A DNA stretch of 64,000 nt, from the NCBI RefSeq assembly GCF_963921235.1, contig NC_086108.1, positions 19,344,001 through 19,408,000 on the forward strand. Direction: 5' to 3'. This stretch comes from Mobula hypostoma. Lineage: Eukaryota. Shown one piece after another: positions 929-60,279 of the stretch. A model generated the notes under the pieces. It saw only the letters and a list, made by a program, of their open reading frames with translations, was not told the origin of the DNA and made no database searches. The number at the start of each line of letters is the position of its first letter. Positions within the stretch are counted from its first letter, which is position 1. The position numbers and the translations under genes are program-made.

Positions 929-1440
929 AGCTAACAAGCCAGCTCGGCGAGCCATTCGACAATAAAAAATTAATAGTGTATCTGGAAGTAATTTAACAAG
1001 CTACTTAAGACTGAAAGCTGCTCTTCCACTAAAATCTTTTCCTGCAACACGAACGTACTCTTTGTACCTTCTTGGATCTCATGCAGAATTGTTATATTTA
1101 CTTCTAAATACTGGACAATTAGAATAAGTTTTCACTCCATTGCTGAGCTCTGTTGCAGCACAGCCTGCCCAATCAGGTCAAATCCATCATCAACCACTTC
1201 AGGAAACCCACAGGCAATAAGGGAGATCCTGAAGCTGCTGCCTGTCACACTGAGAAATAATTAATATTCATTGTTCTACCATTGTTCTTTCTGCAAAATG
1301 CAGTCCACAGAAATCTCTAAGAATTCCTTTTTAGAAAGTTGATCCTATTTCCTTCTGGACAGGGCTGAAACTGTCAAATGTTTAAATCACAGAGCAAGGG
1401 AAAAGAGCAACACGTGTCTAAAAAATGGCCTGACATATTC

Positions 1441-2376
1441 AAACAACAGGAATTCTGCAGATGCTGGAAATTCAAGCAACACACATCAAAGTTGCTGGTG
1501 AACGCAGCAGGCCAAGCAGCAACTGTAGGAAGAGGTGCAGTCGACGTTTCAGGCCGAGACCCTTCGTCAGGACTAACTGAAGGAAGAGTGAGTAAGGGAT
1601 TTGAAAGTTGGAAAGGGAGGGGGAGATCCAAAATGATAGGAGAAGACAGGAGGGGGAGGGATAGAGCCGAGAGCTGGACAGATGATAGGCAAAAGGGGAT
1701 ACGAGAGGATCATGGGACAGGAGGCCTAGGGAGAAAGACAAGGGGGGGCGGGGACCCAGAGGATGGGCAAGAGGTATATTCAGAGGGACAGAGGGAGAAA
1801 AAAGAGAGTGAGAGAAAGAATCTGTGCATAAAAATAAGTAACAGATGGGGTACGAGGGGGAGGTGGGGCATTAGCGGAAGTTAGAGAAGTCGATGTTCAT
1901 GCCATCAGGTTGGAGGCTACCCAGACGGAATATAAGGTGTTGTTCCTCCAACCTGAGTGTGGCTTCATCTTTACAGTAGAGGTGGCCGTGGATAAACATG
2001 TCAGAATGGGAATGGGATGTGGAATTAAAATGTGTGGCCACTGGGAGATCCTGCTTTCTCTGGCGGACAGAGTGTAGATGTTCAGCAAAGTGGTCTCCCA
2101 GTCTGCGTCGGGTATCGCCAATATATAAAAGGCTACATCGGGAGCACCGGACGCAGTATATCACCCCAGTCGACTCACAGGTGAAGTATTGCCTCACCTG
2201 GAAGGACTGTTTGGGGCCCTGAATGGTGGTAAGGGAGGAAGTGTAAGGGCATGTGTAGCACTTGTTCCGCTTACACGGATAAGTGTCAGGAGGGAGATCA
2301 GTGGGGAGGGATGGGGGGGACAAATGGACAAGGGAGTTGTGTAGGGAGCGATCCCTGCGGAATGCAGAGAGAGGGG
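1441..2376 (-). repeat. Inverted pseudo-LTR of the Penelope element (GIY-YIG coding end, 3' UTR and tail)
   Basis: Reverse complement of about 4430-5320, plus an extra tail of about 30-40 nt. ORF 1871-2401 matches the C-terminus of ORF 4037-4930 with 13 aa differences. Confidence 0.95.
1538..1576 (-). ncRNA. Minimal type I hammerhead ribozyme (intact core)
   Basis: Minus strand reads AGTC-CTGACGA-AGG-gtctcgg-CCT-GAAA-CGTC-GACT. Confidence 0.85.
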
Positions 2377-2569
2377 TGTAGGCCCCGACGCTAGCAGGCA
2401 TGAACTTCAGATTGCGGCCCCTGCCATCGATCTCGGTGGCTCCAACACCTCAGGGCATATTCAAAATCCGGACTCCAGCAACGACCATGGACACCTTCAC
2501 AGCGATTGTGCAACCACCAACTGCGACTCCAGCCTTGAACTCCAGGCCTGGTCTTCAAGTGCTGCTGTT

Positions 2570-4930
2570 GTGACTCCTGTCTCCCCTTCCCCCACCAATA
2601 CTCTGCAATCCCGTCTCCCTCAGATCTCACCATCAGCTCCTGGGCCCTCGGAGGCTCCACCTTCCTCTCACCCCAACCCTCCCCTCTCCACTGACACCCC
2701 CAGCCTCCCCCCTCCCCCCTCTGATCCCAGCTCTCATCCGTGCCGGGTCTTTACCATCCCCTCCGACCTTCAACTGTCGGAGGCAGAACGCTCTGTTCTC
2801 AGTAAGGGCCTCACGTTTGTCCCCCTTCGCCCACACCTCAGCGAGTTCCGTGTTCGCCACGATGCGGAACTTTTCTTCCGCCGTCTCCGAGCCTACTTCT
2901 TCGGCAAGTACGCTTCCACTCCCACCGATGACCCCTTCTCCCGTCTTCAACCCTCCTCTTCTTCATGGACACCCCGCTCTGGTCTTCTACCTGCTCTGGA
3001 TCTCTTTATCGCTAACTGCTGACGGGACATCAACCGTCTCGACTTCACCGCACCTTGTCCCCATTCCAACCTCACTCCTTCGGAACGCTCTGCTCTCCAC
3101 TCCCTCCGCACTAATCCTAACCTTATTATTAAACCTGCCGACAAGGGGGGTGCTGTTGTAGTCTGGCGTACTGACCTCTACCTTGCCGAGGCACAGCGAC
3201 AACTCGCGGATACCTCCTCTTATTTACCCCTCGATCGTGACCCCACTAAGGAGAACCAGGCCATTGTCTCCCACACCATCACCGACTTTATTCGTTCAGG
3301 GGATCTCCCATCCACTGCTACCAACCTTATAGTTCCCACACCCCGCACTTCTCGTTTCTACCTCCTACCCAAGATCCACAAACCTGCCTGTCCTGGCCGA
3401 CCTATTGTCTCAGCTTGCTCCTGCCCCACCGATCTCATTTCTGCATACCTCGACACTGTTTTATCACCCCTTGTTCAATCCCTTCCGACCTATGTTCGTG
3501 ACACTTCTCACGCTCTTAAACTTTTCGATGATTTTAAGTTCCCTGGCCCCCACCGCTTTATTTTCACCATGGATGTCCAGTCCTTATATACTTCCATCCC
3601 CCATCAGGAAGGTCTCAAAGCTCGACTCTTCTTTTTGGATTCCAGACCTAATCAGTTCCCCTCTACCACCACTCTGCTCCCTCTAGCGGAATTAGTCCTT
3701 ACTCTTAATAATTTCTCCTTTGGCTCCTCCCACTTCCTCCAAACTAAAGGTGTAGCTATGGGGACCCGTATGGGTCCTAGCTATGCCTGCCTTTTTGTTG
3801 GGTTTGTGGAACAATCTATATTCCATGCCTATTCTGGTATCTGTCGCCCACTTTTCCTTCACTACATCGACGACTGCATTGGCGCTGCTTCCTGCACGCA
3901 TGCAGAACTCGCATTAACTTTATTAACTTTGCCTCCAACTTTCACCCTGCCCTCAAGTTTACCTGGTCCATTTCCGACACCTCCCTCCCCTTTCTAGATC
4001 TTTCTGTCTCTGTCTCTGGAGACAGCTTATCCACTGATGTCTACTATAAGCCTACTGACTCTCACAGCTATCTGGACTATTCCTCTTCTCACCCTGTCTC
4101 TTGCAAAAACGCCATCCCCTTCTCGCAATTCCTCCGTCTCCGCCGCATCTGCTCTCAGGATGAGGCTTTTCATTCTAGGACGAGGGAGATGTCTTCCTTT
4201 TTTTAAAGAAAGGGGCTTCCCTTCCTCCACTATCAACGCTGCTCTTAAACACATCTCCCCCATTTCACGTACATCTGCTCTCACTCCATCCTCCCGCCAC
4301 CCCACTTGGAATAGGGTTCCCCTGGTCCTCACCTACCACCCCACCAGCCTCCGGGTCCAACATAGTATTCTCCGTAACTTCCGCCACCTCCAACGGGATC
4401 CCACCACTAAGCATATCTTTCCCTCCCCCCCCCCTGCATTCCGCAGGGATCGCTCCCTACACAACTCCCTTGTCCATTCGTCCCCCCCATCCCTCCCCAC
4501 TGATCTCCCTCCTGGCACTTATCCGTGTAAGCGGAACAAGTGCTACACATGCCCTTACACTTCCTCCCTTACCACCATTCAGGGCCCCAAACAGTCCTTC
4601 CAGGTGAGGCAACACTTCACCTGTGAGTCGACTGGGGTGAGATACTGCGTCCGGTGCTCCCGATGTGGCCTTTTATATATTGGCGAGACCCGACGCAGAC
4701 TGGGAGACCGCTTTGCTGAACATCTACGCTCTGTCCGCAAGAGAGAGCAGGATCTCCCAGTGGCCACACATTTTAATTCCACATCCCATTCCCATTCTGA
4801 CATGTCTATCCACGGCCTCCTCTACTGTAAAGATGAAGCCACACTCAGGTTGGAGGAACAACACCTTATATTCCGTCTGGGTAGCCTCCAACCTGATGGC
4901 ATGAACATCGACTTCTCTAACTTACGCTAA
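2570..4930 (+). pseudogene. Penelope RT/GIY-YIG ORF, disrupted
   Basis: One frame from 2570 with an in-frame TGA at 3020-3022 continues through 3569 (MDVQSLYT). Frameshifts occur near 3915 and in the T-run near 4200, and the stop is at 4930. Confidence 0.9.
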
Positions 4931-5215
4931 GGCCCCACCTCCCCCTCGTACCCCATCTGTTACTTATTTTTATGCACACATTCTTTCTCTCACTCTCTTT
5001 TTTCTCCCTCTGTCCCTCTGAATATACCTCTTGCCCATCCTCTGGGTCCCCCCCCCTTGTCTTTCTTCCCGGACCTCCTGTCCCATGATCCTCTCGTATC
5101 CCCTTTTGCCTATCACCTGTCCAGCTCTTGGCTCTAACCCTCCCCCTCCTGTTTTCTCCTATCATTTTGGATCTCCCCCTCCAACTTTCAAATCCCTTAC
5201 TCACTCTTCCTTCGG

Positions 5216-5254
5216 TTAGTCCTGACGAAGGGTCTCGGCCTGAAACGTCGACTG
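5216..5254 (+). ncRNA. Minimal type I hammerhead ribozyme (intact core)
   Basis: Stem I AGTC(5218-21)/GACT(5250-53), core CTGACGA (5222-28), stem II AGG/CCT, GAAA (5242-45), GUC triplet (5247-49) and a palindromic ACGT mini stem III. Confidence 0.85.
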
Positions 5255-6289
5255 CACCTCTTCCTACAGATGCTGCTTGGCCTGCTGCGTTCACCAGCAA
5301 CTTTGATGTGTGTTGCCTGACATATGATGATGGGTGTTAGGACAATTAACATAATTTTCTTAGTTTGTATAATATTCAGTGGCAAACTATGGATAGCTGT
5401 TTCTAACAAGCAATATTAAGGGCAAAGTTCTTTGCCTAGCATTCATCTGGCTAGGTCTACCTGCACCAAGAAAATGTTGAAACAAGCCCATTTCACATCC
5501 AAAATTACAAACCGAAGTATGCACCACCTTCTCTACACAGAATGTAGTAAATAACCATAACAGAAAACGGTCTAGCACTACTAAAACTGACGATGGACTC
5601 ATTCTCTGCCACTAGGAGGAAGCACATCTCTTAGAATAAAGCCCACTGCACTGCCATGCACTGCATATTCTGACATTCAAAATCATGGGTTGACTCTTGC
5701 AGAGAAGCACTGGAGACCTCTGGGTACTGCAACCACTTCTCTAGGCAAATCTGGGATTAATTATGCAATTGGTAGCCACTCTTTGTAGATTACTTCCCCA
5801 AGCACATTTATGTTGGACGATTAGAAGTTCGTTCATGGAGCACAGAGTGGCAGCAGCTCCCCGTGCACACAGTACGAGGAGTCTGCTGCTGAACGCGTCA
5901 CTTTAGACTGGAGAAGGAACAACAAATCCATTCAACGAACAGGAACAGGTGCAAAGGACAAACTATTTGATAATTAACTTTTTTGAGCTGAACTTAGCAA
6001 TTGAAAGCATTGACCCAAAAAGCATTTTTGCTTTGATTTTGAATTGTTCATTTAGATTTAAATGTCTGAGCTAATTGAATTTGTTCACCATTTTTTTAAC
6101 TTTTTAGTTCACTGTCCAGTTTATTTCAGCTATTCCATGTAAACGGATTGTTCATAGAGATTGAGGAAGATGTATTACTGCTCTCCCAGAATGCAGCAAT
6201 GTCACAAAACAAGATGATCCCCAATTGATCTTCCAAGCGCATTAACTACTGTCAGTTTAAGATGCAAAAATAACTTCTGTGTGATCAAT

Positions 6290-10933: not shown

Positions 10934-12429
10934 TACTTTCACTGAGATACTACAAACTGTAGCCTGACACAAACCTCCCTGACCAAACAATCCTTTCCTG
11001 TCAGGTCTGTAAATTACTGCATGGTCCAGACATACATTATTAGTCAGTGCCTCATGAGGTAACAAATACTCGTTATAATATTTATCTCTTACCAGGTAGT
11101 GACATAACAGAGTGAAGTGTATATTGCAAACTGGCATCAAGCATTTCCATAGACCTCTTATTTAAACAAAAGTAACTACAACACAGCTAGAGCCACAGAA
11201 TGTTCCTGGGTGTCAAGATCTCTGAGGACCTGACCTGGTCCCAACGTATCGATGTAGTTATAAAGGCTCATACATAAGGTTCTTTTTCATCGACTACAGC
11301 TCTGCCTTTAATTCCATCATTCCAAATAAACTGATTCCTAAGCTCCGGAACCTGGGCCTTAGCACTCAGATCTGCAGCTGGATCTTCAACTTCCTCACAG
11401 ACAGGACCCAGACTGTAAAAATAGGGGACAAGCTCTCCTCTACATTCACTCTGAGCACCGGTGCCCCACAAGGCTGTGTACTCAGCTCCCTGCTGTACTC
11501 ACTGTACACCCATGATTGTGTAGCCAAGTTTCCATCAAACTCAATATATAAGTTTGCTCATGACACAACAATTGTAGGCCGAATCTCCGGTAATGATGAG
11601 TTTGAGTACAGAGAGAAAATTAAGAACCTGGTGGCATGGTGCGAAGACAATAACCTATCCCTCAACATCAGCAAGACGAAGGAATTAGTTGTTGACTTCA
11701 GAAGGAGTAGCGGACCGCACGACCCAATTTACATCGGTGGTGCGCAAGTGGAACAGGTCAAAAGCTTTAAATTCCTCAGGGTCAATATCACAAATGACCT
11801 GACTTGGTCCAACCAAGCAGAGTTCACTGCCAAGAAGGCCCACCAGCATCTTTACTTTCTGAGAAAACTAAAGAAATTTGGCCTGTCCCCTCAAACCCTC
11901 ACTAATATTTATAGATGCACCGTAGAAAGCATTCTTCTAGGGTGCATCACAACCTGGTATGGAAGTTGTCCTGTCCAAGACCGAAAGAAGCTGCAGAAGA
12001 TCGTGAACATGGCGCAGCACATCACACAAACCAATCTTCCGTCCGTGGGCTCACTTTACACCGCACGCTGTCGGAGCAGTGCTGCCAGGATAATCAAGGA
12101 CACGACCCACCCAGCTAACAGACTTTTCGTCCCTATTCCCTCCGGGAGAAGGTTCAGGAGCTTGAAGACTCGTACGGCCAGATTTGGGAACAGCTTCTTT
12201 CCAACTGTGATAATACTGCTGAACGGATCCTGACCCGGATCTGGGCCGTACCCTCCAAATATCCGGACCTGCCTCTCGGTTTTTTTGCACTACCCTACTT
12301 CCCATTTTTCTATTTTCTACTTATGATTTATAATTTAAATTTTTAATATTTACTATTTTTAACTATTTTTAATATTTATAATATTTAATATTTGTAATCC
12401 AGGTGGTGTGAAGCGCAGAATCAAATATC

Positions 12430-15392
12430 ACAAGACAAAGGAGCAGAAGTAGGCCATTCGGCCCATCGAGTCTGCTCCGCAGCTCCCCCATGAGCTAAAC
12501 TATTCACCCATCTAGTTCGAATTTCCGGCTTTTTCCCCATATCCCTTGATACCCTGACTAATTAGATACCTGTCAATCTCCTCCTTAAACACCCTCAATG
12601 ATCAGGCCTCCACAGCTGTATGTGGCAACGAATTCCACAAATCCACGACCCTCTGGCTAAAAAAATTTCTCCTCATCTCTGTTTTAACTGGGTACCCTCT
12701 AATTCTAAGACTATGGCCTCTTGTCCTGGACTCACCCACCAAGGGAAACAACCTTTTCATATCTACTCTGCCCAACCCTTTCAACATTTGAAATGTTTCT
12801 ATGAGATCCCCTTTCATTCTTCTATACTCTAATGAATACAATCCAAGAGCTGACAAACGCTCTTCATATGTTAGCCCCTGCTTTCCAGGAATCATCCTCA
12901 TAAATCTTCTCTGAACTCCCTCCAACATCAGTACATCCTTTCTAAGATAGGGGTCCCAAAACTGCACACAGTATTCCAAATGAAGTCTCACTAATGCCCC
13001 ATAGAGCCTCATCAACACCTCCTTACTCTTATACACTATTCCTCATGAAATGAATGCCAACATAGCATTCGCTTTCCTTACCGCCGATCCAACTTGGTGG
13101 TTAACCTTTAGGGTATCCTGCATGAGGACCCCCAAGTCCCTTTGCACTTACAATTTTTGAATTTTCTCCCCATCTAAATAATAATCTGCCTGATTATTTC
13201 TTCTTCCGAAATGTACAACCATACATTTGTCAACATTGTATCTCATCTGCCATTTCTTTGCCCACTCTCCTAAACTAAGTCTCTCTGCAACCTTTCCGTT
13301 TCTTCAACTTTTCCTGCTCCTCCACCTATCTTGCTGTCATCCGCAAACTTAGCCACAAAACCATTTAATCCATAATCCAAATCATCGATATTGTGACGAA
13401 AGAGGGTTACAAAAGTACACATAGACTAAGATGCTAACTGTCCTGTGCTAGCACCAGTGGGATCTGCCACCTGTCTTCAGGAGAGAGAGATAAGTAAGAC
13501 AATGGAGCAGCATTTGGAAATGTTAATGAAGAGACGAGAGAGTTTAACGGAAGGAGACACCGGTCTGAATATTGTCAAGACCGGCTCCTTTTGAACCCTG
13601 AACTGTTTGAAGTGTGATAGACAGGCGATACCCCAGCAAGGAGATAAAAAAGGGGCAGGTTCGCTAAGACAACACACACGACACCACGAGGTAATGAGAC
13701 CCTGGAAGCGGTGTGCCCCCACAAGTCGGTGGGAGTTTTTGGAGGACTGCTAGCGGGACCAGCCATAGACGCACAAGGTGGAAAGGTACGATCGGCAGGA
13801 ACCTGGTGTGTGTGTCCACCCTTGCCTGGGTGCCGGGTTCACCGCAGAGGAACGATCATATCTGAAACGGAGGAGTCACAGTCGGTGACCTCAGAAGACA
13901 TTACAAAGGGCTCGCCCGAAAGCTAACTGCGAGGAATATCAAAGGTCTGTTGAATCCGATTTGAATATCAGTATTCGCTCTCTCTCTCTCTCTCCCAACA
14001 GCACGACGGCGATAACTACGAACTGAACTAAACTGAACTCTGTCACTTGTGATTGAACATTTTACCCCTAGACTGCGACAGAGCTGATGGACCCTATTAT
14101 CCTAGTTCTGTGTATATGTGTGTTTATTCATTGCTAACCTGTTGCATTTATATCCTTACTATTAGAGTACTGTGTTACTTATTTCTTTAATAAAACTTTC
14201 TTAGTTCCAGAAATCCAGACTCCAACTGAGTGGTCCATTTCTGCTGGTTTGGCAACCCAGTTAAGGGGTACGTAACAATATACATCGTAAAAAGAAGTGG
14301 CCCCAACACCAACCCCTGCGGAACACCACTAGTAACCGGCAACCAATCAGAATATGATCCCTTTATTCCCAACCTTTGCTTTCTGCCTATCAGCCAATGC
14401 TCCACCCATTTCAATATCTTTCCTATAATTCCATGGGCTCTCATCTTATTAAGCAGCCTCATATGTGGCACCTTATCGAAGGCCTTTTGAAAATCCAAAT
14501 ACACAACATCCACAGCCTCTCCCTTGTCAATCTTATTCGAGATTACCTCAAAAAATTCCAATAGGTTGGTGAGGCAGGATCTTCCCTTCATGAAACCATG
14601 CTGGCTTCGGCCTATCTTGTCATGCACCTCGAGGTATTTCATAACCTCGTCCTTGAGGATTGACTCCAATATCTTTCCAACTACCGATGTCAGACTAATA
14701 GGTCTGTAATTTTCTTTTTGCTGCCTCCTTCCTTTCTTAAATAGCGGAACTACATTTGCAACCTTCCAGTCCTCCGGAACCATGCCAGAGTCTATTGATT
14801 CCTGGAAGATCATTTCCAATGCTTCCACAATCTCCAAAGCCACCTCCTTCAGAACCCTTGGGTGCACCTCATCCAGACCGGGAGACTTATCTATTCTTAG
14901 TCCATTTAGCTTCCCAAGCACTTTCTCTCTAGTAATCTTGACTGTACCTAATTCTATTCCCTGATACCTCTGGCTATCAGGTATATTGCTCATGTCTTCC
15001 ACTGTGAAGACTGATGCAAAATATTCATTCAATTCCTCTGCCATCTCTTTGTTATCCATTATAATTTCTCCAGCATCATTTTCAATCGGTCCCGTATCTA
15101 CCCTTGTCACTCTTTTACTCTTCATATATTTAAAAAAACTCTTAGTATCCTTTTTTATGTTAATCACCAACTTCCTTTAATAATTCATCTTTTCTTTCCT
15201 AATAACTTTCTTAGTTTCCTTCTGTAAGTTTTTAAAAGTCTTCCAGTCCTCATTTTTCCACTAATTTTTGCTTCCTTGTACGCCGTTTCTTTGCTTTTAT
15301 TTTTGCCTTAACCTCTCTCGTTAGCCACATTTGTGCCATTTTTCCCATTCATGATTTTCTTTTTTCTTGGAATATATTTTTCCTGCATTTTC
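12430..15392 (-). mobile_element. CR1 LINE, 5'-truncated, interrupted by a solo LTR
   Basis: ORFs 14187-15170 (KSPGLD, YRPISLTS, YLDFQKAFDKVPH, SGVPQG) and 12602-13036. The RT reading resumes across the LTR (LFTMYI|DDLDYG...KFADDSK). Confidence 0.95.
13392..14277 (+). mobile_element. Solo LTR, 886 bp (probably Gypsy/Ty3)
   Basis: TGTGACG...CGTAACA termini, 4-bp TSD ATAT (13388-91 and 14278-81), AATAAA near 14189. It cleanly interrupts the CR1 RT. Confidence 0.9.
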
Positions 15393-15941
15393 CTGTGATG
15401 AGTGTACGTTCTAGTACTAATTGTTTGGCGACAACAAAGTATAAAGTATAAAAAAGGCAAGACAGAGCCTATACTTCATTAGGATTTTGAAGAGATTTGG
15501 CATGTGAACAAATACACTCAAAAACTTCTACAGATGTACCATGGAGAGTATTCTGACAGGCTGCATCACTGTCTGGTATGGAGGGGGCTACTCCACAGGA
15601 CTAAAGGAAGCTGCGGAAGGTTTTAAATCTAGTCAGCTCCATCTTGGGTACCAGCCTACAAAGTACCCAGGACATCTTTAGGGAGTGGTGTCTCAGAAAG
15701 GCAGTGTCCATTATTAAGGACCTCTAGCATCCTTTTCTCACTGTTACCATCAGGTAGGAGGTACAGAAGCCTGAAGAGAGACACTCAGTGATTCAGGAAC
15801 AACTTCTTCCCCTCTGCCATCTGATTCCTAAATGGACATTGAATCTTTGGACATTACGTCACTTTTTAAAAAAATATCGTATTTCTGCTTTTGCACTTAT
15901 TTTAATCTATTCAATATACATAATTGATTTACTTCTTTATT

Positions 15942-16943: not shown

Positions 16944-18320
16944 CCAACCTAACAGTTCTTGTCCTAACACTACAGTACCTCCTGCCTGATGGTAACAATT
17001 GAAAGAGAATGTTGGAAGGAAGGGATCATTGACAATGTCAAGGGCACTGCATACACAGCACTCTTGATAAATATCTCTGCCCCCTAAGTCCCCTCCATTA
17101 CTCCCTGTATATCCATGACTGTGTCAACACCCACAGCTCTAACCTAAATAAATTTGCTGACGACAGGCCTAATCTCAAATAATAATCAGGTGGCCTACAG
17201 GGAAGAAGTCATCACCCTGACACAGTGGTGTCAAGAAAACCTCTCCCTCAAAGTCGCAAAAACAAAGAAGCTGTTTGTGGATTACAGGAGAAATGGACAC
17301 AGGCTAACCCCTATTGACATCAATGGATCTGGAGTTGAGAGGGTAAACAGCTTTAAGTTCGTTGGCATCCCCATCACTGAGGATCTCGCTTGGTCTGTAC
17401 GTACCAGCTGTGCGGTGAAAAAGGCACAACAGCGCCTCTTTCACCTCAGATGGTTCAGGAAGTTTGGTATGGGCCCCCAAATCCTCAGAACTTTCTACAG
17501 GGGCACAAAAGAGGGCATCCTGATTGGCTGCATCACTACTTGGTATGGGAACTGTACCTCCCTTAATCACAGGACTCTGCAGAGAGTGGTGCGGACAGCC
17601 AGCGCATCTGTAGTTGTGAACTTCCCATGATTCAGGACATTTACAAAGACAGGTGTGAGAAAAAAGGGCCTATAGGATCATTGGGGACCCAGTCACGCCA
17701 ACCACAATCTATTCCAGCTGCTACCATCCGGAAACTGTACCACAGCATAAAAGCCAGAACCAGCAGGCTCCCGGACAGCTTCTTCCACCAGATCATCAGG
17801 CTGATTAACTCACGCTGATGTGAGAGTATTCTGTTACACTGACTGTTCTATTTATTATAAATTATTATAAATTACTATGACGGAGACATAACAAAGATTT
17901 TTACTCCTCCTGTATGTGAAGGATGTAAGAAATAAAGTCAATTCAGTTCAATGATGGGTGGAAGAGAGACCCAATGATCCTCTCAGCGGTCCTCATAATT
18001 CTTTGTGGTCAGATACCTTGCAATTCCCATTCCAGACGGTGATGCAGCTAGTCAGGACACTCACGATGGTGCTCCTATAAATATTGGTTGAAATGGTTGG
18101 AGCGGGAGCAGCAGGGAACCCTTGCTCACCTCAAACTCCTTAGGAAGTGGAAACACAGCAGTGCTTTCTTGACCAAAGAGGTGGTGTTGAGGGACCAGAT
18201 TACATCATCTGTTAAGTGTTCTTAACTCTCTCCGTGGAGGAGCTGTTTATGTGCAGTGAAAAGTGGATAACCTGCATCTTCCTCAAGTCAACAATGATCT
18301 TCGCTCAAGTTGTTGTCAAG
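16944..18320 (-). mobile_element. Old Rex1-type fragment (16944-17078 and 17950-18320) split by a plus-strand Rex1
   Basis: Minus-strand remnants of LPSGRRY, TIVSVLTSCITVWNG and IVDLRK. Confidence 0.55.
17079..17950 (+). mobile_element. Rex1/Babar LINE 3' fragment
   Basis: ORF 17154-17630 (WCQENLSLKVAKTKKLFVDYRR...KKAQQRLFHLR). The end is AATAAAGTCAATTCAGTTCAA. Confidence 0.85.
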
Positions 18321-18557: not shown

Positions 18558-19269
18558 ATAGAAGTTAGGGTAATCAAAAGTGCCTGTAGATCTAACCAAA
18601 TCTGAAAACAAGAGATTCTGCAGATGCTGGAAATCTTGAGCAACACATTAGCCATTCACCACCTTATTTTCCAATTAGATTAGACTAGACTCCATCATCC
18701 TCAGCCTATCACCTTCTAGCTTCTCACCTTCCCTGCCTCCCTGTCGCCACCACCCCTCCCCCCTTACCTAGATATTCCGATCAGCTGCCAGCCCCATCTT
18801 TCACCTCTTTACCTTCTGGCTATATCCCCTCTTTTTCTGTCCAGAGAAAAAGTCCCAGCCTGAAACTTCAACTGAGCATTTCCCTATGAAGATCATTGCA
18901 CAGTTTCCCCAGGAAGTTTCCAGAACATCCTCAAAACATTTTTACCATCTTGCTGCAAAGCTCTTGTCATGGCAGCTCACAATGGAAGGACTGTTTCAGG
19001 ACATGCAGGACATGCCATTAATCTGCCTGCCAAATGCAGCAGACTGAATGTAATCAGAATATTGATGTTAATGATATTGGTTTGGGAGAGAACACTTGGA
19101 CTTGCTTATCCTAGTTGTGAACTTTGTTGGATTATCATTAGAGTGTTACATTGCTATAGTTGTCAGTTTAATTTTTCCTGTGCTTGCTGGTATTGTTTAT
19201 ATAACCACGTATCTACATGCAGCTGTTCAGTAATTGTAGTATAGGTGATTATGGTGATTCTGTATTTTT

Positions 19270-20645: not shown

Positions 20646-21029
20646 CAACTAATAAACAGACATATCCAACATGTTCTGGATTCCAAAATCATTAGATCCA
20701 GATCTTGGAGGATTTTGAAGAGAAAATATCAGCACTCACTCTCCCCAGTGCTTTTAAAGTACATACTGCATCCACAAAGCAGTGCAGTTATCACTGCTAT
20801 GTTATATTTGAGAAGCAGAGAGCCTAATCTTAGACTGTTGGTTTTCAAACACATTTCTTCAGATACGAGAAGGCTGACTGAGCACACCTGAGGCAGTGAT
20901 CATGTTTTTTTAAAACTTAACTTTGATTTACTATGATTTCTACCTGCCCCAATAGTCTCTTTCCCTCTATTCTTTGGCAAGAGTCTTGTCATCTTCAGAA
21001 GTTTTCTGATAACTTGGCCATAGTTGGAT

Positions 21030-21830
21030 GCATCAGCAAGGGAGATGAGGCTGAGTACAGGGCCTATGGTAGGAAACTTTGTCACATGGTGTGAGCAGAA
21101 TTATCTGCAGCTTAATGTGAAAAAGACTAAGGAGCTGGTGGTAGACCTGAGGAGAACTAAGGTACCGGTGACCCCAGTTTCCATCCAGGGGGTCAGTGTG
21201 GACATGGTGGAGGATTACAAATACCTGGGGATACAAATTGACAATAAACTGGACTGGTCAAAGAACACTGAGGCTGTCTACAAGAAGGGTCAGAGCTGTC
21301 TCTATTTCCTGAGGAGACTGAGGTCCTTTAACATCTGACGGACGATGCTGAGGATGTTCTACGCGTCTGTGGTGGCCAGTGTGATCATGTTTGCTGTTGT
21401 GTGCTGGGGCAGCAGGCTGAGGGTAGCAGACACCAACGGAATCAACGAACTCATTCGTAAAGCCAGTGATGTTGTGGGGATGGAACTGGACTCTCTCACG
21501 GTGGTGTCTGAAAAGAGGATGCTGTCCAAGTTGCATGCCATCTTGGACAATGTCTCCCATCCATTACATAATGTACTGGTTGGGCACAGGAGTACATTCA
21601 ACCAGAGACTCATTCCACTGAGATGCAACACAGAACGTCATAGGAAGTCATTCCTGCCTGTGGCCATCAAACTTTACAACTCCTCCCTTGGAGGGTCAGA
21701 CACCCTGAGCCAACAGGCTGGTCCTGGACTTATTTCCTGGCATAATTTACATACTACTATTTAATTATTTATGGTGCAACTGTAACAAAAACCAATTTCC
21801 CCCAGGATCAATAAAGTATGACTATGACTA
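21030..21830 (+). mobile_element. Rex1/Babar LINE 3' fragment
   Basis: ORFs 21024-21338 and 21345-21764 ([28 protein letters not shown]), with tail AATAAAGTATGACTATGACTA. Confidence 0.9.
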
Positions 21831-31214: not shown

Positions 31215-31912
31215 CAAGTTTTTCTTAAATGTTAAAAGTGAGCCCGCATTTACCACTTCATCTGGCAGCTCATTCCACACTCCCACCACTCTCTGTGTGA
31301 AGAAGACCCCCTAATGTTCCCTTTAAACTTTTCCCCTTCATCCTTAACCCATGTCCTGTTTTTTTTCTTCCCCTAGCCTCAGTGGAAAAAGTCTACTTGT
31401 ATTCACTGTATCTATACCCATCATAATTTTATATACCTCTATCAAATCTCCCCTCATTCTTCTACGCTCCAGAGAATAAATTCCTAACCTATTCAACCTT
31501 TCTCTGTAACTCAGTTTCTCAAGTCCCGGCAACATCCTTGCAAACCTTCTCTGCACTCTTTCAACCTTATTAATATCCTTCCTGTAATTTGGTGACCAAA
31601 ACTGTACACAATACTCCAAATTTGGCCTCACCAATGCCTTATACAACCTCACCATAACATTCCAACTCTTATACTCAATACTTTGATTTATAAAGGCCAA
31701 TGTACCAAAAGCTCTCTTTACGACCCTGTCTACCTGTGACGCCACTTTTAGGGAATTTTGCATCTGTATTCCCAGATCCCTCTGTTCTACTGCACTCCTC
31801 AGTGCCCTACCATTTACCTTGTATGTTCTACCTTGGTTTGTCCTTCCAAAGTGCAATAGTTCACACTTATCTGTATTAAACTCCATCTGCCATTTTTCAG
31901 CCCATTTTTCTT
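31215..31912 (-). mobile_element. CR1 LINE fragment
   Basis: ORF 31344-31886 (MEFNTDKCELLHFG...RDLG...LEYCVQFWSP...RGDLIEVYK). Confidence 0.92.
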
Positions 31913-40431: not shown

Positions 40432-40468
40432 GGTCCTGACGAAGGGTCTCAGCCTGAAACGTCGACTG
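40432..40468 (+). ncRNA. Minimal hammerhead ribozyme (intact core)
   Basis: GGTC-CTGACGA-AGG-gtctcag-CCT-GAAA-CGTC-GACT. Confidence 0.8.
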
Positions 40469-40530
40469 CGCCTCTTCCTATAGATGCTGCTTGGCCTGCT
40501 GCGTTCACCGCAACTTTGATGTATGTTGCC
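40435..40530 (+). mobile_element. 96-bp Penelope mini-insertion (hammerhead plus 3' end) inside the L1 RT
   Basis: Matches 5221-5317 and has TGGGT on both sides (40430-34, 40531-35). Removing it restores the L1 frame NINKTQLLS. Confidence 0.9.
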
Positions 40531-42424
40531 TGGGTTTTATTTATGTTGATCTTGTATCCTGATAATTGGCCATATTGTTCAAAGGATTGCATCAATTTAG
40601 GTAAAGAGTACGTTGGTTGCCCTAGATAGATCAAAATGTCATCCGCGTAAAAGGCCAATTTATGCTGTCCCTTTAATAGCAATTCCCCTGATATCTTCAT
40701 TTTGTCTGATGTATTGAGCTAATGGTTCCAGATATAATGCGAAGAGTAGCAGTGACCATGCACAACCCTGTCTCGTGCCCCTTTCTAGGGTAAAACTACT
40801 AGATAAGTATCCATTGATTTTAATCCTGGCAGTAGGATTGTTGTATAGTGCCTGCATAGTTTTGATAATTGTGTCATGTAGACCAAATCTATGTAAAACT
40901 CTGTGAAGAAAATTCCAGTTAACCGAATCAAATGCCTTTTCAGCATCCACACTTATCACTATTGCTTCAATTTAATTTTTTTTAATATGATCCAAAATGT
41001 GAAGTGTCCTTTGTATATTGTCTTGTGTTTGGCATTGTTGTATAAAACCTGTCTGATCATTATGATTAGTGTGGGTAGAAACTCTTCTAATCGTTTGACC
41101 ATGATGAAAGTCAATATTCTATAATCCACATTAAGAACAGATATTGGTCTAAATGACCTACATTCCATTTTATCCTTGCCTTCTTTCGGTATAGCTGAGA
41201 TTATCGCCTCCTTCCAGCTGGGTGGCATTTGTGCCTTTCTTAGGGCCCAGTTCAGTGTGGGGAGTAAAACAGGAATTAACTCATTTCTAAATTCTTTATA
41301 CCACTCTGCCGTATATCCATCTGATCCTGGTGACTTGCTTAATTTAAGCCTACTAATTGCAGTTTTTAGTTCAGCTTCAGTTATGTCAGCAGCTATCGTT
41401 CTATTTTGTTCTTTGCTTAAATTGGGTAACTCTAAAGAATTCAGGAAGGTGTCAATTTGGGTTATGCTTCCCCTTGGAATTTTGGAATATAGAGTTTTGT
41501 AGAACATTTCAAAAGCTTCTTGAATTTCACTGAGCTTATTTTTTTAAATCACTTTTGTTCTTGGATCCCTGATTCTATGAATTGTATTTTCTATCTTTTT
41601 TCCCCCCAGTTTCCATGCCAGTATTTTCATAGATTTAGATTCACTTTCATAGTGTCTCTGTTTCTGAAGCATTAAATTTTTTCTAATTTCTTGTGTAGCC
41701 AAAATATTAATTTCATTCCTGATTTTTAAAATTTCCTCTAGTGTATCCTGTGTCAAGCTCAATTTGTGTTTTTTTTCTAGTTTCTTCAGCTTATTTTGTA
41801 CATTAGGGATTTTTAAAAGAATCTAGATCAGGCCATGAATGTGAGGAAAATGGAAGGATTATGGACATTGTGTAGGCAGAAGGGATTAGTTTAGTTGGCC
41901 ATTTGTTACTAATTTAATTGGTTCAGCACAATATTGTGGGCCAAAAGGTCTGTTCCTGTACTGTGCTTTTCTATATTCTAATTTACCGATATGAGATTAT
42001 GTGGAAATCTGTGGTATTTCCATTCAATTTCTTACGAGAAAAACATTGATTCACAGTAAGCCAGAAACATATGACGACTTGATGCATAAATAACCAAAGG
42101 TAATATGGTTAACTCATGAATTTTTAAAGGTACAAAACAACCTGTTTGATATATGCATCTTTTCTCCAACTGCATTTCAAAGAAGAATAAAAAAAATACA
42201 AACTCTCAGGAAAATTAATTACAGAATTTCCATTTTCTGGTCTGTTCAAGTTTATTTTGAGCAATCTCATCTGACAAAAATATTTTTTAAACCATTTCCC
42301 TTCAAGCCACAAATGAACTTCAAAGCAATCAGGTGCATCTCAATGGTAGCCTTCTCACACCCCACTCAGGAGATTATTCGTTCAAGCTTTTACAAAAGCA
42401 TTAAAAAAAAATCTTGAAGTGGGA

Positions 42425-45955: not shown

Positions 45956-46482
45956 GACATTTAGATAGGCACATGAATGTGAGGAAGATGAAAATTGTGC
46001 AGTTATTAGGGATTAGTTTTTGTTTTCTTTATTTTTCAGCTGGTTCGGCACAACATTGTGGGTTGAAGGGCCTACTCCTGTGCTGTACTTATCCTTGTAC
46101 TATAAATTAAAGCAAGTTGAGCTTGAGGGAGTTATTTTTCACCCGGAGAGAGGGGAGTACCTGCAATGCACTGCCAGTGCGATTGCTGTAAACAGAATCA
46201 CTGATGGAATTAGAAAGTGCTCAGATTAACACTTAAATTGATGGCTACAAGCTGGATCTTGAAGATGGGATCAATACTTCAGGTACCCACTCGTCAGCTT
46301 AGATCTGGTGAGCCGATTGGCCTGTTTCCAGGCTGTGGTATGTTATGACTCTACGACTGTGAGCACCCTCTAAATTTGAAAATAAACTACAAGTACTGAA
46401 AACATGGACTAAAAACTGAAAATGCTGGACACACTCAGATCAAGCAGCATCGACAGGAAGAGAAATGGCTAGTGTTTCAGAT

Positions 46483-46895
46483 CAACACACACAAAATGCT
46501 GGAGGAACTCAGCAGGCCAAGCAGCCTCTATGGAAAAGAGCAAGCAGTCAACATCTCCAGCCAAGACCCTTCATCAGCACTGGAGAAAAAAGTTGAGAAG
46601 TTAGAGCAAGGTGGTGGAGGGGATGGGAGGAAGAAACACAAAAAACAAATGGTGATAGGTGGAACTGGGAGAGGGGAAGGGGTGACGCTAAGAGCTTGGA
46701 AGTTGAGTGGTAAGTGAGGGAGGTGGTGTAGAAGGTGGGGGGGGGCATTACAAGAAGTTTATAGAAATCGATGTTCATGCCATCAGGTTGGAGGCCCAAA
46801 ATATTGACAGTACTCTTTTGCTTAGATGCTGGCTGGACTACTGAGTTCCTCTAGCATTTTGTGCATGTTGCTTGGATTTCCAGCATCCTGCAAAT
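46483..46895. mobile_element. Penelope-derived mini element with inverted ends
   Basis: The minus arm 46483-46795 reaches LQPDGMNIDF. The plus arm starts inside hammerhead stem II (GGCCCAAAA) and ends with the tail GGATTTCCAGCATC. Confidence 0.75.
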
Positions 46896-48174
46896 TTATA
46901 ATTTACCCCTCAAGCTTATGATATCCAAAAGGATTTTTCTTTCAAAATGCATCTTTTGAGCAACCAGGTTACTTTAGTAGTCGCACAACTCGTTTATTGT
47001 GCCTGAATCAGAGGTTCAAGTCAAACACCTCCATTCTCAGTTTCTTGGAAATTCTCTGCATCATTTGAGAAAAGGAGGTCAATTCACAAGTGAAGCTGAT
47101 GAAAAGAACCATGCAGTGAAGAAATTTTCTCATTCAAGCACAGGAATATTCATGTTGCAGTGGAATCTGAATGTCATACTTTCACTGAAAAGTTAATACA
47201 TTTCATTTCACAACTCTGTATGACAGTTTAATGTCAAAAGAATGAAAAACATGCAGGAACCCCCACTCCAAATCTAACCTAAATCCTACATCTGTTGGTA
47301 AAAATCATGCATCTTTCAGCACTCTCAGTGCAAGGCAGCAGCGATACAATGCCTATCCGATGACGAAGCCAATCTCACTGGCACCAATAAACTGTACTGT
47401 TGGATCACCATAGCCATCAGACAGAAGTCTCACAAGACCATTTCTCTCATACACATGGATCTTTTGGCTTCATCTACAAGATCAAAAAAGATTCCTTATA
47501 ATGGCAAAACCACAAAATCTAGAATGCAAAGACTATTTTGAGGATATTTTGATGATTCAAAGAAAGTGATGAGAAAGGTTGCACAAATTGTACAATGGTT
47601 TAATAGTCGAACAGGAACAGACCTAATGAAATCATAGGAAACTCAACAAACCTAAACAAGCACTTAACACTTTGAAAATAGCATAAAACTGTCAATCATG
47701 AGAACAGACTATGGTCAAATTTAAAAGAGACTTTGATTTGGACCTTGCACAAGTTGAATGGTATGTTCTTTAAAGCTCTGCTATACAAACAGGAGTGGGG
47801 GTGGGGGGGGGAGGCACAGAAGCCAGAAAGGAAGGCAAGGATATGAGAGCAAGAGCACACATCTGCTGGGAAAGAATGCACATTTGGCAGAGTAATCCTC
47901 CAGAGGAAATCACTGTCAGGTCTAAATCAGAATCAAATGTGAATGATAATCTTTAATTTCCTTGCAGATTTTACTACTGATTTAACAGGGTTTTTTCAGA
48001 TACAATATTAAAGGTCATACATGCCTCTGAACATGGAGTGCAGAACAAGTATGCCAAATGAATAACTCAAAATATTAAACGGCACAGGCAGCTTCTTCAG
48101 TATCAGAAATAGGATGTAAAACATGGGTGAATAAACTGCAAAATTTGATATTGTTGTTACCTGTCTGAGAGGAC

Positions 48175-49320: not shown

Positions 49321-50842
49321 TTGTCAAATGCAGCTGCTGCAGTTAATACTCATTCTGTTTTCCATTTCATTTTGATAAAGAATGAGTAAAGACAATGAGC
49401 AACAAGACAGAACAGAGAAGAATTTGGTTGCTTCACTCTAAAGTGCTGAGGCCAGCTATGTTGCTCGCCAGCAGTAATTAGACAAATGAAATTCTAATGA
49501 CCAGCATGACATGTACAGCACAAAGACCAAGAGATAATCGACATGTGCAATGTCCAAACTTGACTACGAAAGCTCTCTGCAATCGCGGGCGATGTACTAT
49601 GATTATGGACAACACAATGCAAGTAAATGAATACCATGGCTAAGGCAACTTGCCTCTGAAGAGAGCTGATGAGTTAGCAGTCACGTACTGTGGAAAATAT
49701 GAGGTAATCTTAAGCAACTTCTGACTCAAGCTCACAACAAGGAAAAGAAAAAAGTCTGTATATAAAGGCAGTGATAAATATATAAAAGAAAAACTACTGA
49801 ATGAGAAGGCAATAGATGCAAATTAAGTCACAAAACATTATTTTTGGAGTTTTAAGTACTTCATTGTTGCTCCTTTCTGGGCGTTGTGGCACACTCAGCG
49901 GCAACCTTGCCACTTCTTAACATTGTCTTTTTTTTAAATATGGCTGAGATGCTAGCTTGACACTCAACCCATCATAGATGGAAAGCTTGTGGCACAAATC
50001 AGTAAAAGGGGAAATGATTTTGTAGCTATTACAGAGATATGGTTGCAGGGTAGACAGAATTGGGAATTAAATATCCAAGGATATCAGGTAATTTGGAAGG
50101 ATAGGCAGGAAGGTAAGGGAGGTTGAGTAGTGCTCTTAACTAAAGATGAGATCAGGGCGATAGTGAGAGACGATACAAGATCTAAGGAGCAGAATGTTGA
50201 ATCCATCTGGGTAGAGATTAGGAACAGTAAAGGGGAAAAAAAATATCACTGGTGGGAGTTGTCTATCAGCCACCGAATAATAACATTACAGTGGCACAGG
50301 CAATAAACAGAAAAATATCTGAGACATGTAAGAATGGAACAGCAGTTATCATGGGGGACTTCAACTTGCACATAGATTGGGTGAATCAAGTTAGTCGAGG
50401 CAGTCTTGAGGAGGACTTCATAGAATGCATCCGTGCTGGCTTTCTTGATCATGTTACTGAACCTACAAGGGAACGTGCTATCTTAGATCTGGTCCTGTGC
50501 AATGAGACAGGTAAAATTAGAGATCTTGCAGTTAGGGATCATCTTGGAAAGAGTGATCACAGTATGACTGAATTTCTCATACAAGTGGAGGGTGCAATAG
50601 TTCAATCTAAAACCAGTGTATTATGCCTAAACAATACACACTACAATGGAATGAGGAAGGATTTGGCTCGTGTAGACGGGGAACACAGGCTATATGGTGG
50701 GACTGTTGAGAAACAGTGGGAGACTTTCAAGAGATTTTTCATGGTCCTCAGCAGAAGTTTATTCCAGTTAAAAGCAAGGACAGTAAGGGTGGGAGAGCCA
50801 GTCTTGAACAACTAAGGAAATAAAGGAAGGCATCAAACTAAG

Positions 50843-53114
50843 TGATCATAACATGATTGAGTTCACTGTGAAATTTGAAAAAGAGAAGCTGAAATCTGAT
50901 GTGTCGTTATTTCAGTGGAGTAATGGAAATTACAGTGGAATGAGAGAGGAACTGGCCAAAGTTGACTGGAAAGGGACACTGGCGGGAAAGACGGCAGAGC
51001 AGCAGTGGCTGGAGTTTATGCGAGAAGTGAGGAAGGTGCAAGACAGATATATTCCAAAAAAGAAGAAATTTTCGAATGGAAAAAGGATGCAACCGTGGTT
51101 GACAAGTCAAAGTCAAAGATAAAGCAAAGGAGAGGGCATACAAGGAAGCAAAAATTAGTGGGAAGACAGAGGATTGGGAAGTTTTTAAAACCTTACAAAA
51201 GGAAACTAAGAAGGTCATTAAGAGGGAAAAGATCAACTATGAAAGGAAGCTGGCAAATAATATCAAAGAGGATACTAAAAGCTTTTTCAAGCTATAAAGA
51301 GTAAACGACAGGTGAGAGTAGATATAGGACTGATAGAAAATGATGCTAGAGAAATTGTAATGGGAGATAAGGAGATGGCAGAGGAACTGAATGAGTATTT
51401 TGCATCGGTCTTCACTGAGCAAGACATCAGCAGTATACCGGACACTCAAGGGTGGCGGGGAAGAGAAGCGTGCACAGTCACAATTATAACAGAGAAAGTA
51501 CTCAGGAAGCTGAATAGTCTAAGAATAGATAAGTCTCCTGGACCAGATGGAATGCACACGCATGTTCTGAAGGAAGTAGCTGTGGAGATTGCGGAGGCAT
51601 TCGTGATGATCTTTCAAAAGTCGATAGATTCTGGAATGGTTCCATAGGACTGGAAGATTGCAAATGTCACTCCGCTATTTAAGAAGGGGGCAAGGAAGCA
51701 AAAAGGAAATTATAGACCTGCTGGCTTGACATTGGTGGTTGGGAAGTTGTTGGAGTCGATTGTCAAGGATGAGGTTACAGAGTACCTGGAGGTATATGAC
51801 AAGATAGGCAGAACTCAGCATGGATTTCTTAAAGGAAAATCCTATTACAAACCTATTACAATTTTTTGAGGAAATTACCAGTAGGCTAGACAAGGGAGAT
51901 GCAGTGGATGTTGTATATTTGGATTTTCAGAAGGCCTTTGACAAGGTGCCACACATGAGGCTACTTAACAAGATAAGAGCCCATGGAATTACGGGAAAGT
52001 TACATACATGAATAGAGCATTGGCTGATTGGCAGGAAACAGAGAGTGGGAATAAAGGGATCCTATTCTGGTTGGCTGCCGGTTACCAGTGGTGTTCCACA
52101 GAGGTCCGTGTTGGGGCCGCTTCTTTTTACATTGTACATCAACGATTTGGATTATGGAATAGATGGCTTTGTAGCTAAGTTTGCTGATGATACGAAGATA
52201 AGTGGAGGGGCCAGCAGTGCTGAGGAAATGGACAGTCTGCAGAGAGACTTGGATAGATTGGAAGAATGGGCAAAGAAGTGGCAAATGAAATACAATGTTG
52301 GAAAGTGTATGGTTATGCACTTTGGCAGAAGAAATAAAAGGGCAGACTATTATTTAAATGGAGAAAGAATTCAAAGTTCTGAGATGCAACGGGACTTGGG
52401 AGTCCTCGTACAGGATACCCTTAAGGTTAACCTCCAGGTTGAGTTGGTAGTGAAGAAGGCAAATGCAATGTTGGCATTCATTTCTAGAGGAATAGAGTAT
52501 AGGAGCAGGGATGTGATGTTGAGGCTCTATAAGGCGCTGGTGAGACCTCACTTGGAGTACTGTAGGCAGTTTTGGTCTCCTTATATAAGAAAGGATGTGC
52601 TGACGTTGGAGAAGGTACAGAGAAGATTCACTAGAATGATTCCGGGAATGAGAGGGTTAACATATGAAGAACATTTGTTTGCTCTTGGACTGTATTCCTT
52701 GGCGTTTAGAAGAATGAGGGGAGACCTCATAGAAACATTTCGAATGTTGAAAGGCATGGACAGAGTGGATGTGGCAAAGTTGTTTCCCATGATGGGGGAG
52801 TCTAGTACGAGAAGGCATGACTTAAGGATTGAAGGGTGCCCATTCAGAACAGAAATGCGAAAAAATTTTTTTAGTCAGAGGGTGGTGAATCTATGGAATT
52901 TGTTGCCACGGGCAGCAGTGGAGGCCGAGTCATTGGGTGTATTTAAAGCAGAGATTGATAGGTATCTGAGTAGCCAGGGCATCAAAAGTTATGGTGAGAA
53001 GGCGGGGAAGTGGGACTAAATGGGAGAATGGATCAGCTCATGATAAAATGGCAGAGCAGACTCGATGGGCCGAATGGCCGACTTCTGCCCCTTTGTCTTA
53101 TGGTCTTATGGTCT
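50843..53114 (+). mobile_element. Younger CR1 LINE, 5'-truncated
   Basis: ORF 52045-53019 (324 aa: SGVPQ, YINDLD, KFADDTK), tail (TCTTATGG)n, and CTAA on both flanks. Confidence 0.95.
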
Positions 53115-56706: not shown

Positions 56707-58139
56707 TACAATCAAGCTGCCAGACTTTCATTATGAGGTCTTACATTAGGTGTCTATGATGACAAAATACCCAAGGTAGTTTACCATCATCAAGACTTAG
56801 GTCAAGCACAATGGCTTTGGAAAGAGTGAGGAAGTCCAAAAGCCAATCAAGATATTGCAAGCTTGTGATTTTGTCACAAGCCTCTTCACAAATATATTCC
56901 TCACTACCACCTGTTCTGAATTTGAAGTACAAACTGTGGAAAATGGATTGACCACATGTTAATTCATTTACTCGGTCTAAAGTACAAGCAATACATAGTT
57001 ACCTACTCTGAAAATGCTATATTGAAATGGTAGCTTTAGTGGAAGAGTTTATGCTGCTGTAAATGCTTGAAAGAAAATGTATCTTAAGGTAGTATATGGT
57101 GACATATACATACTGCCATAATTAATTCGCTTTGACTTTTTAAAGATCTATTCAACAGGCCAAAGAGAAGGAATTGAGTTGTAACACACCTTAATTATTT
57201 AATGCAAAAAGCTGCACAAATTTGTCTGTTTTAAGAATGGAAACCCAATCTTCACACAGAGTATTAAATAGCACATGGCACCAAAAGTGTCCATGTAATC
57301 TCCACCATCAACTAGGTAGTCCAGAATAGCAGTTCAAAGTCAGGGTTGCTTCTGAGTGCAACACTGGTATCTTCAGCATGGGTCCTATGCCTGGAAAGCT
57401 GATTGCCCACCCAATCATTGCTGCTCCAGCCTCAAAGGAGCATGACCTTGACTGACTCTCTGACATTGTTTGCTAGTAGAGAAATTCAGCAGCTGTACAC
57501 TATAGACATCTGTCAATTTAAGACAGAGATGGGGTGTTTAAACTCATTCCATACTCTTCCAGCTGTTAAGACAATAGAGATTTTCATTCCAAACAAATGG
57601 AGTTTAAATCCAAATCAGAAAGAAGATAAAGTTCCAACATATTAAGCTCTCTCTCATCTCCCTTTATTCAAGACTAAGTCATTTTTTCCAATTAATAGAG
57701 TCACAAATGTCTGTACTTCTTTACAAATCAGCACTTGCAATTCAAATGTCAGGGGTTTTAGCATTGGTGATGCGGATTTCAAATGTGTTTCTTAAATTAT
57801 TTCAGTGAAGAATTCCATGAACTGTTTCTTTGTTAATGGTGCCAACCATGTGGGAATTTGGAGAGGTTGAATCAACTTCACCACAAAAAAATGTAAAAGA
57901 CCAGAGGGAAAACAGTTTGTCGTGCTTGAGAAAGCCACACTGACCCAAAACCCCACCCACTCTTCTCAAACATTTTTTAAAACAGTGAACTGTACTTAAT
58001 ACGAAACAGACCACTTGTTGTTTATTGTTCTACTCAGTGGAGGATACTGACAACTAGTTAACGATGCACAAAAATAAACTGTCAAATCTTACCTACAATC
58101 ATTGCATTGAAATTACAAGAATTTGTACTTATGTTTCAC

Positions 58140-60262: not shown

Positions 60263-60279
60263 TTTTAAAAACGGGTTTT

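Follow-up and report, generated by a model that had tools for sequence, protein, structure and literature searches.

Two identical hammerhead ribozyme motifs that face each other from opposite strands raise the question of whether such an arrangement serves a purpose or follows from the way in which the DNA carrying it was inserted. They flank a reverse transcriptase (RT) remnant in a 64,000-nucleotide (nt) stretch of the Mobula hypostoma genome (NCBI RefSeq assembly GCF_963921235.1, contig NC_086108.1, positions 19,344,001 to 19,408,000), hereafter called the window, in whose coordinates all positions are given; the original prediction had described a Penelope element bracketed by two intact ribozymes. 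We conclude, with a probability of about 0.88, that the locus goes back to one insertion event of fairly recent date, in a cartilaginous fish, by an abundant and endonuclease-positive (EN+) Penelope-like element (PLE) of Neptune type in its ordinary inverted layout. The element has a target site duplication (TSD), head-to-head 5′-truncated copies with their 3′ ends outward, one long and one short end, a broken open reading frame (ORF) and the marks of neutral decay. The opposite-strand hammerhead pair would be a by-product of the duplicated 3′ end: because the hammerhead sits 60–100 nt inside that end, any copy longer than about 100 nt carries one.

The two inverted arms, each about 0.9 kb long, differ by 28 substitutions and 9 gap columns in an alignment of 890 columns (3.1% divergence), and an exact 11-mer encloses the whole unit (Table 1), so that the inverted repeat and the TSD of the original prediction are both borne out. 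The 11-mer does not occur again within the window, and an 11-mer was common to just 48 of 200,000 random 30 × 30-nt junction pairs. At its 3′ end the left arm extends about 39 nt past the right arm, which gives the element one long, tailed end and one short end, the tail being absent from the original prediction; no long palindrome was found at the centre of the element, in the junction at 2372–2385. Terminal inverted repeats of a DNA transposon, or a DIRS element, were ruled out, the arms being copies of a coding 3′ end and no transposase or recombinase match being present, and an assembly artefact was likewise ruled out by the 28 differing sites between the arms and the unique TSD.

Published PLEs offer close counterparts to this anatomy (statements on the literature, here and below, refer to parts of the papers cited). 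EN+ PLEs are described with an inverted 5′-truncated upstream copy and a 30–40-bp tail at one end (Craig et al. 2021, PMC8557442), and Pen2/Pen2a of Adineta vaga with inverted pseudo-long terminal repeats (pLTRs), 9–10-bp TSDs and a 31-bp tail, head-to-head being the most frequent orientation (Arkhipova et al. 2013, PMC3846280). The focal element shares with Pen2/Pen2a the inverted terminal arms, the short TSD, the tail on one arm, the defective ORF and the head-to-head order; it differs in clade and host, in its 0.9-kb arm that includes the endonuclease coding part, and in a junction without a long palindrome. A comparison with the pLTR organization found the inverted arm, the tail and the TSD to be present and a direct upstream pLTR to be absent from the focal copy.

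Table 1. Features of the focal element and other head-to-head copies in the window.
Feature	Position	Strand	Evidence and remarks
Left TSD, 11 bp	1428–1438		Exact match to 5315–5325; contigs of organisms H and I follow the flank to 1438
PLE tail, about 39-nt 3′ extension, left arm only (long 3′ end)	1439–1477	−	Arm alignment; family contigs stop at 1440/1441 and 1477
Left arm, inverted 5′-truncated copy of the 3′ 0.9 kb (endonuclease part, 3′ untranslated region (UTR), hammerhead)	1478–2376	−	Arm alignment; GIY-YIG match
Left minimal type I hammerhead; cut predicted 3′ of C1543	1538–1576	−	Motif letters
Head-to-head junction of both 5′-truncated copies	2372–2385		Arm alignment; family depth falls there
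RT–GIY-YIG ORF remnant, 5′-truncated	2377–4930	+	Translation, Pfam, relatives
Right arm, 3′ end of main copy (short end, no tail)	4425–5314	+	Arm alignment
CX4CXXC zinc (Zn)-finger-like linker and GIY-YIG endonuclease with CCHH residues	4526–4930	+	Translation, Pfam
Right minimal type I hammerhead; cut predicted 3′ of C5249	5216–5254	+	Motif letters, folding
Right TSD, 11 bp	5315–5325		Exact match to left TSD
Possible older head-to-head copy	18607–18919		TSD search: none found
Older head-to-head copy	46469–46897	−/+	TSD search: none found
Head-to-head copy	58138–58354 (region 58123–58365)	−/+	14-bp TSD; one tailed and one short end; junction inside hammerhead
Head-to-head copy	59757–60260 (region 59746–60278)	−/+	10-bp TSD; 343-nt minus arm with short end; 161-nt plus arm, tailed

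Both the 3.1% divergence of the arms and their unlike 3′ ends might be read as traces of two separate events, with a second insertion beside the first, or of later recombination or gene conversion. We regard such an origin as very unlikely: a single TSD encloses the whole unit and none was found at the junction, 15 of the 16 coding differences between the arms are non-synonymous (p 0.06 against 75%; 2e-7 against 30%), unlike what two active masters would leave, and the long/short asymmetry recurs in the other two TSD-bounded pairs.

The assignment to Penelope in the original prediction was right, on the strength of matches to RVT_1 (E 4e-6) and GIY-YIG (E 0.002; 0.003 for the left arm at 1874–2449, minus strand), the first two of which lie under the Pfam cut-off (27.1 versus 29.6 for RVT_1). 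The translation contains a PLE-type RT with a DKG motif, seen as ADKGG, as well as YIDD (3863–3874) and the CCHH feature of the endonuclease, with CxxC between its two boxes and two histidines downstream. A Zn-finger-like linker (C177-x4-C182-x2-C185) joins the RT and the endonuclease; the combined linker pattern occurs in 78 of the 88 relatives that bear YIGxT among 120 sequences fetched. Such a linker is given as common to Neptune and Nematis (PMC8557442), and its CX4CXXC form would mark the element as one of these two types. Protein relatives number 2240 at E ≤ 1e-20, the best being a Chiloscyllium protein with 74% identity, against which the ORF has an in-frame stop (3020–3022), frame breaks near 3910 and 4200, and a 2-codon deletion near 2886. 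The 5′ truncation is visible in the N-terminal profile of 22 full-length relatives, which matches only at positions 166–205 of 206, and in the 140 codons ahead of LSKGL, versus a median of 191.5 in the relatives.

The focal element is thereby a defective, non-autonomous member of the EN+ PLEs, not a non-member. With the Neptune-type elements of PMC8557442 it shares the single RT–GIY-YIG ORF, the CX2-5CXXC linker, CCHH, the inverted upstream copy, the tail and the terminal-repeat hammerhead; it lacks the direct upstream pLTR, its ORF is dead, and the likeness is one of features rather than of an RT tree. We also considered a non-LTR retrozyme, defined by head-to-tail non-coding tandem units with a type I hammerhead in each (bioRxiv 10.64898/2026.07.22.740005), and rejected it, the units here being inverted and flanking an RT–endonuclease remnant. 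A literature search on Penelope or Neptune hammerheads in sharks and rays turned up no paper on the focal family by title or abstract start; the supplement of PMC4209133, which may list cartilaginous-fish motifs, lay outside its scope.

The 39-nt hammerhead segments of the two arms are identical and lie on opposite strands, as had been proposed. The type I core is defined as C3 U4 G5 A6 N7 G8 A9, G12 A13 A14, A15.1–U16.1 and H17 (PMC3088659), and its invariant letters are all present, from the C3–A9 box through G12–A14 and A15.1–U16.1 to C17 (at 5249 and 1543). In the right motif, stem I is made of 5217–5221 and 5250–5254, the core lies at 5222–5228, stem II at 5230–5241 and the palindromic ACGU at 5245–5248. 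The description of the motifs as intact has to be qualified at position 11.1, which is U, so that stem II closes either with a G·U pair after a bulged A or with an A–U pair and no bulge, in place of G10.1–C11.1 (both registers were tested in folding). That pair is reported as highly conserved in minimal hammerheads (PMC4209133), and even a U–U mismatch at 10.1–11.1 can keep activity (PMC3088659); it is a conserved, not an absolute, hammerhead feature.

The G·U pair occurs in both focal copies and in a third complete core at 40436 (plus strand), absent from the original prediction, whereas C11.1 is found at 60129 and in every one of the 17 motifs that 80 related loci, distant relatives on short metagenome contigs, yielded. 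The U, being common to the two arms and to the young copy at 40436, was probably already in the template. The third core belongs to a solo copy of about 100 nt (40433–40536, plus strand) that starts at stem I of the complete hammerhead and adjoins the end of a decayed minus-strand RT of a long interspersed nuclear element (LINE) at 40452–41543; a TSD search at this copy and at the single copy at 43170 found none. Dual minimal hammerheads on opposite strands, 100–700 bp apart, have been reported in metazoan PLEs (Cervera and de la Pena 2014, PMC4209133), and the focal motifs resemble them in the short stem I, the bulged A after A9, the palindromic 15.2–16.2 and the opposite-strand pairing of motifs; they differ in having G·U for G10.1–C11.1 and in a spacing of 3.7 kb. 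The covariance-model search that the original prediction had offered as a check did not detect the motifs: Rfam gave no match at gathering score across the window, and on 5150–5330 the only matches at E ≤ 10 were two weak ones to models other than hammerheads, dismissed as chance.

Folding energies came from a nearest-neighbour model, which ignores tertiary contacts and protein help. When the 39-mer was folded by itself, 89% of the sampled structures had both stem I and stem II, a share that fell to 2–4% or less in longer contexts, and the core of the monomer pairs with the cleavage-site strand in 97% of the sampled 39-mer folds, leaving it free in at most 0.2%. A double-hammerhead fold reaches about −12 kcal/mol, versus −30.7 for the best two-strand fold. 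The lone minimal hammerhead is predicted from these folds to be inactive. For a tested Schistosoma motif, no cleavage of the monomer and low cleavage of dimers were reported (PMC4209133), which agrees with the background given in the original prediction, that minimal hammerheads cleave as dimers. Each focal copy retains both sides of the cut site, so both copies must have been made from an uncleaved RNA template.

Both cores are unchanged, four CpGs included, and this could point to a selected regulatory device, in which the host retains two intact ribozymes and paired arms so that the duplex switches cleavage off. We consider such a device extremely improbable. Identical 39-nt cores are expected by chance with P = 0.29 at the uniform arm rate and 0.17 when CpGs are taken into account, and of the 861 windows of 39 columns in the arm alignment, 223 show no difference. 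Transitions that preserve pairing as G·U number 10 and 9 for the two possible transcripts, and in this split no selection for arm pairing is seen on either strand; CpG transitions make up 7 of the 28 arm differences. The arms decay neutrally after one insertion, for which a share of non-synonymous coding changes as high as the 15 of 16 seen is to be expected. The non-canonical closing pair of stem II, the mispaired monomer core, and the youth of the insertion with its apparent absence from organisms H and I (see below) also speak against a device.

Beyond the focal locus, 18 of 20 matches to the 3′ end in the window reach E ≤ 1e-3. Counted by sequence letters, 13 of these 18 copies extend over the core; the 11 invariant letters are complete in 5 of them, and in 3 the ACGU palindrome has survived as well. 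In the 16 other window copies, non-CpG cells differ at 15/126 (11.9%) in the core and 196/1089 (18.0%) outside it (Fisher p 0.11). Contigs from sequencing runs were aligned to 600–2700, which covers one arm, for 4 of 24 runs, and give no strand, ends or level; the rows covered were 40 of 292 for variants, 15 of 793 for joints and 24 of 3543 for loose ends, and run X2 had no cover over 1026–1380, which proves nothing. For hundreds of divergent family contigs, 1538 or 1574, the borders of the motif, is where the alignment starts or stops. This border pattern and the somewhat lower divergence of the core would fit selection that acts on active master lineages rather than on copies already inserted. 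Deep relatives keep the core while their stems covary, with the proviso that the scanner itself selects for the core.

The same run contigs bear on the age of the insertion. Single-copy contigs from organisms H and I follow the left flank precisely as far as 1438 and continue with 448 and 554 letters unlike the element; flank divergence is 5.8% (H) and 4.8% (I), and drift per arm about 1.6%. Most simply, the site is apparently empty in both organisms and the insertion fairly young. A contig from organism B (2.8% diverged) passes from the left flank into the element for 12 nt, which weakly hints at the presence of the insertion in B. Within the left flank, 680–950 is moderately repeated sequence with a depth up to 100-fold above single copy in DNA runs.

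The head-to-head layout recurs in at least three further copies within the window, two of them with TSDs (Table 1). In the copy at 59757–60260 each hammerhead has a single decay change, in A6 of one and in the stem III CpG of the other, and the plus-strand motif keeps C11.1. The junction of the copy at 58138–58354 cuts through the hammerhead, so it is the point of truncation alone that decides whether a pair has two whole cores. In each of the three TSD-bounded pairs of the window, a long end is combined with a short one and the junction is off-centre. Next to the older copy at 46469, the segment 46400–46470 resembles an additional, older 3′-end remnant that the insertion interrupted.

The 17 minimal hammerheads come from 14 of the 80 related loci, and stem III is palindromic in every one; the motif scanner gave 0 matches in 20 of 20 shuffles of these loci. 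In 29 loci, chosen because their match reaches the C-terminal region, an inverted upstream copy occurs in 9 and a direct one in 5. One locus (L029) has the anatomy of the focal element, with hammerheads at 1087 (minus) and 3582 (plus) and a 6-mer as its only TSD candidate; another (L015) similarly has inverted arms with two hammerheads, and in two others (L003 and L067) the two hammerheads lie in direct pLTRs, at distances of about 3 and 7 kb. Across the related loci, stems vary freely round a fixed core, and the stem III palindromes include CG, AT, GC, AATT, AGCT and CGCG inserts. A search of metagenome contigs with the DNA pattern of the fish family gave 0 matches.

How might such an insertion arise? 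A staggered target cut with nicks 11 nt apart would produce the TSD; both nicked target ends may then have primed reverse transcription on uncleaved RNA, at the two 3′ start sites of the family, and the two partial cDNAs would have been joined head to head. A precedent for several of these steps is the Anolis Poseidon element PAc, which nicks and extends both target strands and uses two RT starts that delimit the tail (Frangieh et al. 2024, PMC11167929), and for which hammerhead cleavage is dispensable in vitro (PMC11167929). PAc and the focal element are alike in their two 3′ ends set apart by the tail, in a hammerhead just upstream, and in insertions from uncleaved RNA; PAc belongs to the Poseidon clade and has its hammerhead within a tandem pLTR, where it overlaps the start of the ORF, whereas the focal hammerhead lies in a 3′ UTR that is not followed by a tandem ORF. 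At the short end, the first six target bases (5315–5320) equal the element's own continuation at five of six positions, and at the end at 58352 the number is three; unlike the Anolis in vitro result, such matches could possibly reflect primer microhomology, the cases being too few to judge. On this explanation neither ribozyme would have a role at the focal locus, because there is no upstream sense repeat to act as a promoter and no dimer partner in cis, and read-through RNA would trap the sense core in duplex.

A more specific mechanism, which we think unlikely but which would give the hammerhead a function, is that head-to-head insertions are left behind by an integration complex with two element RNAs, which are paired through the palindromic stem III and held by a dimeric RT–endonuclease. 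Each nicked target end would then prime one RNA, one at the long start and the other at the short start. The idea rests on the three TSD-bounded pairs, each with one long and one short end. If it were true, the hammerhead would be mainly a dimerization signal, which would explain the spread of a G·U subfamily that keeps the palindrome. A literature search on Penelope and twin priming found, by title or abstract start, no paper on PLE insertion, and no PLE mechanism paper later than PMC11167929 turned up.

In a transcript that ran through both arms, these are predicted to pair over 871 bp at about −1850 kcal/mol, the perfect runs measuring 105, 97, 70, 60 and 55 bp, and read-through RNA from either strand contains one sense core, transcribed after the antisense copy, which is predicted to bind it at −81 kcal/mol versus −11 for the monomer fold. 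The original prediction had proposed that read-through RNA folds into long double-stranded RNA (dsRNA), which silences cleavage and could feed ADAR or Dicer. The folding step holds up in these predictions; nothing sets the locus apart as a designed or selected arrangement, given the usual PLE layout, its recurrence in the window and in relatives, and the even wobble split. There would also be little cleavage to silence, monomers being predicted, and reported, to be inactive. The Dicer route has a precedent in print and is hence not new: in transgenic Drosophila, small interfering RNAs (siRNAs) match rearranged Penelope copies in their inverted parts (PMC3681739). Those copies resemble the focal element in having long inverted repeats able to yield dsRNA; their siRNAs are known from small-RNA data and the focal locus from sequence alone.

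It is conceivable, though in our judgement doubtful, that an element of the same origin is read through by a host or cryptic transcript and acts as an incidental hairpin source of endogenous siRNA or as an ADAR substrate, helping to silence the family. Besides the long duplex and the Drosophila precedent, this would accord with the abundance of the family in two runs guessed to be RNA and with one low-depth contig that spans the flank at 1124–1450. Against it, the RNA status is a guess (eight runs so guessed contain 28–36% of words, and no run is recorded as RNA, which is no evidence either way), the contigs lack strand and ends, and none of those listed crosses the unique 2376/2377 junction. 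The excess of A>G plus T>C changes differs between run pairs (X2 versus X19, p 0.006; X3 versus X20, p 0.79; different organisms, multi-copy), so that the proposed check for A-to-I clusters yielded no usable signal and an editing signal was rejected. A Pfam scan of 175 of the 177 ORFs of at least 75 amino acids outside the element (two that overlap the left arm were excluded) found no host gene from which read-through might start. A hairpin source of this kind would, moreover, hold equally for every head-to-head copy, and is not particular to this locus or to its ribozymes.

Outside the element, that scan returned only RT, endonuclease and ALKBH8_N-type LINE matches and one weak LDLRAD1_C match (31687–31911, plus strand; E 2e-5, below cut-off) within a repeat region, probably a chance match. 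Decayed LINE fragments (RVT_1, Exo_endo_phos_2, ALKBH8_N-type) lie at 11226–12230, 14190–15176, 17148–17627, 21024–21335, 40452–41543 and 50231–54721, and the LINE stretches at 12429–15394 (minus strand) and 51030–53102 (plus strand) are 78% alike.

Several points weigh against the explanation that we prefer. The two-primer route is one that we infer, and self-priming on an antisense template has been published as an alternative (PMC3846280). The empty site in organisms H and I is suggested by where two contigs stop aligning. Family-wide frequencies are drawn from 18 copies in a single window and 80 short metagenome loci. Short host exons would escape a Pfam scan of ORFs of this length, and the contig from organism B, from a run guessed to be RNA, joins the left flank to the element by 12 nt, below the 31-nt bridging rule, so that some read-through is possible.

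The layout has been in print since at least 2013 and opposite-strand hammerhead pairs since 2014, and the focal copy is an ordinary, decaying case of both. Its value is that of a clean, datable example, with a TSD, a tail and a probable empty site, and the cartilaginous-fish family to which it belongs is very abundant. Its copy number would make the long/short rule testable by a genome census alone, and the family could let questions about PLEs be counted: the origin of inverted insertions, the tail at one end and the purpose of a weak hammerhead.

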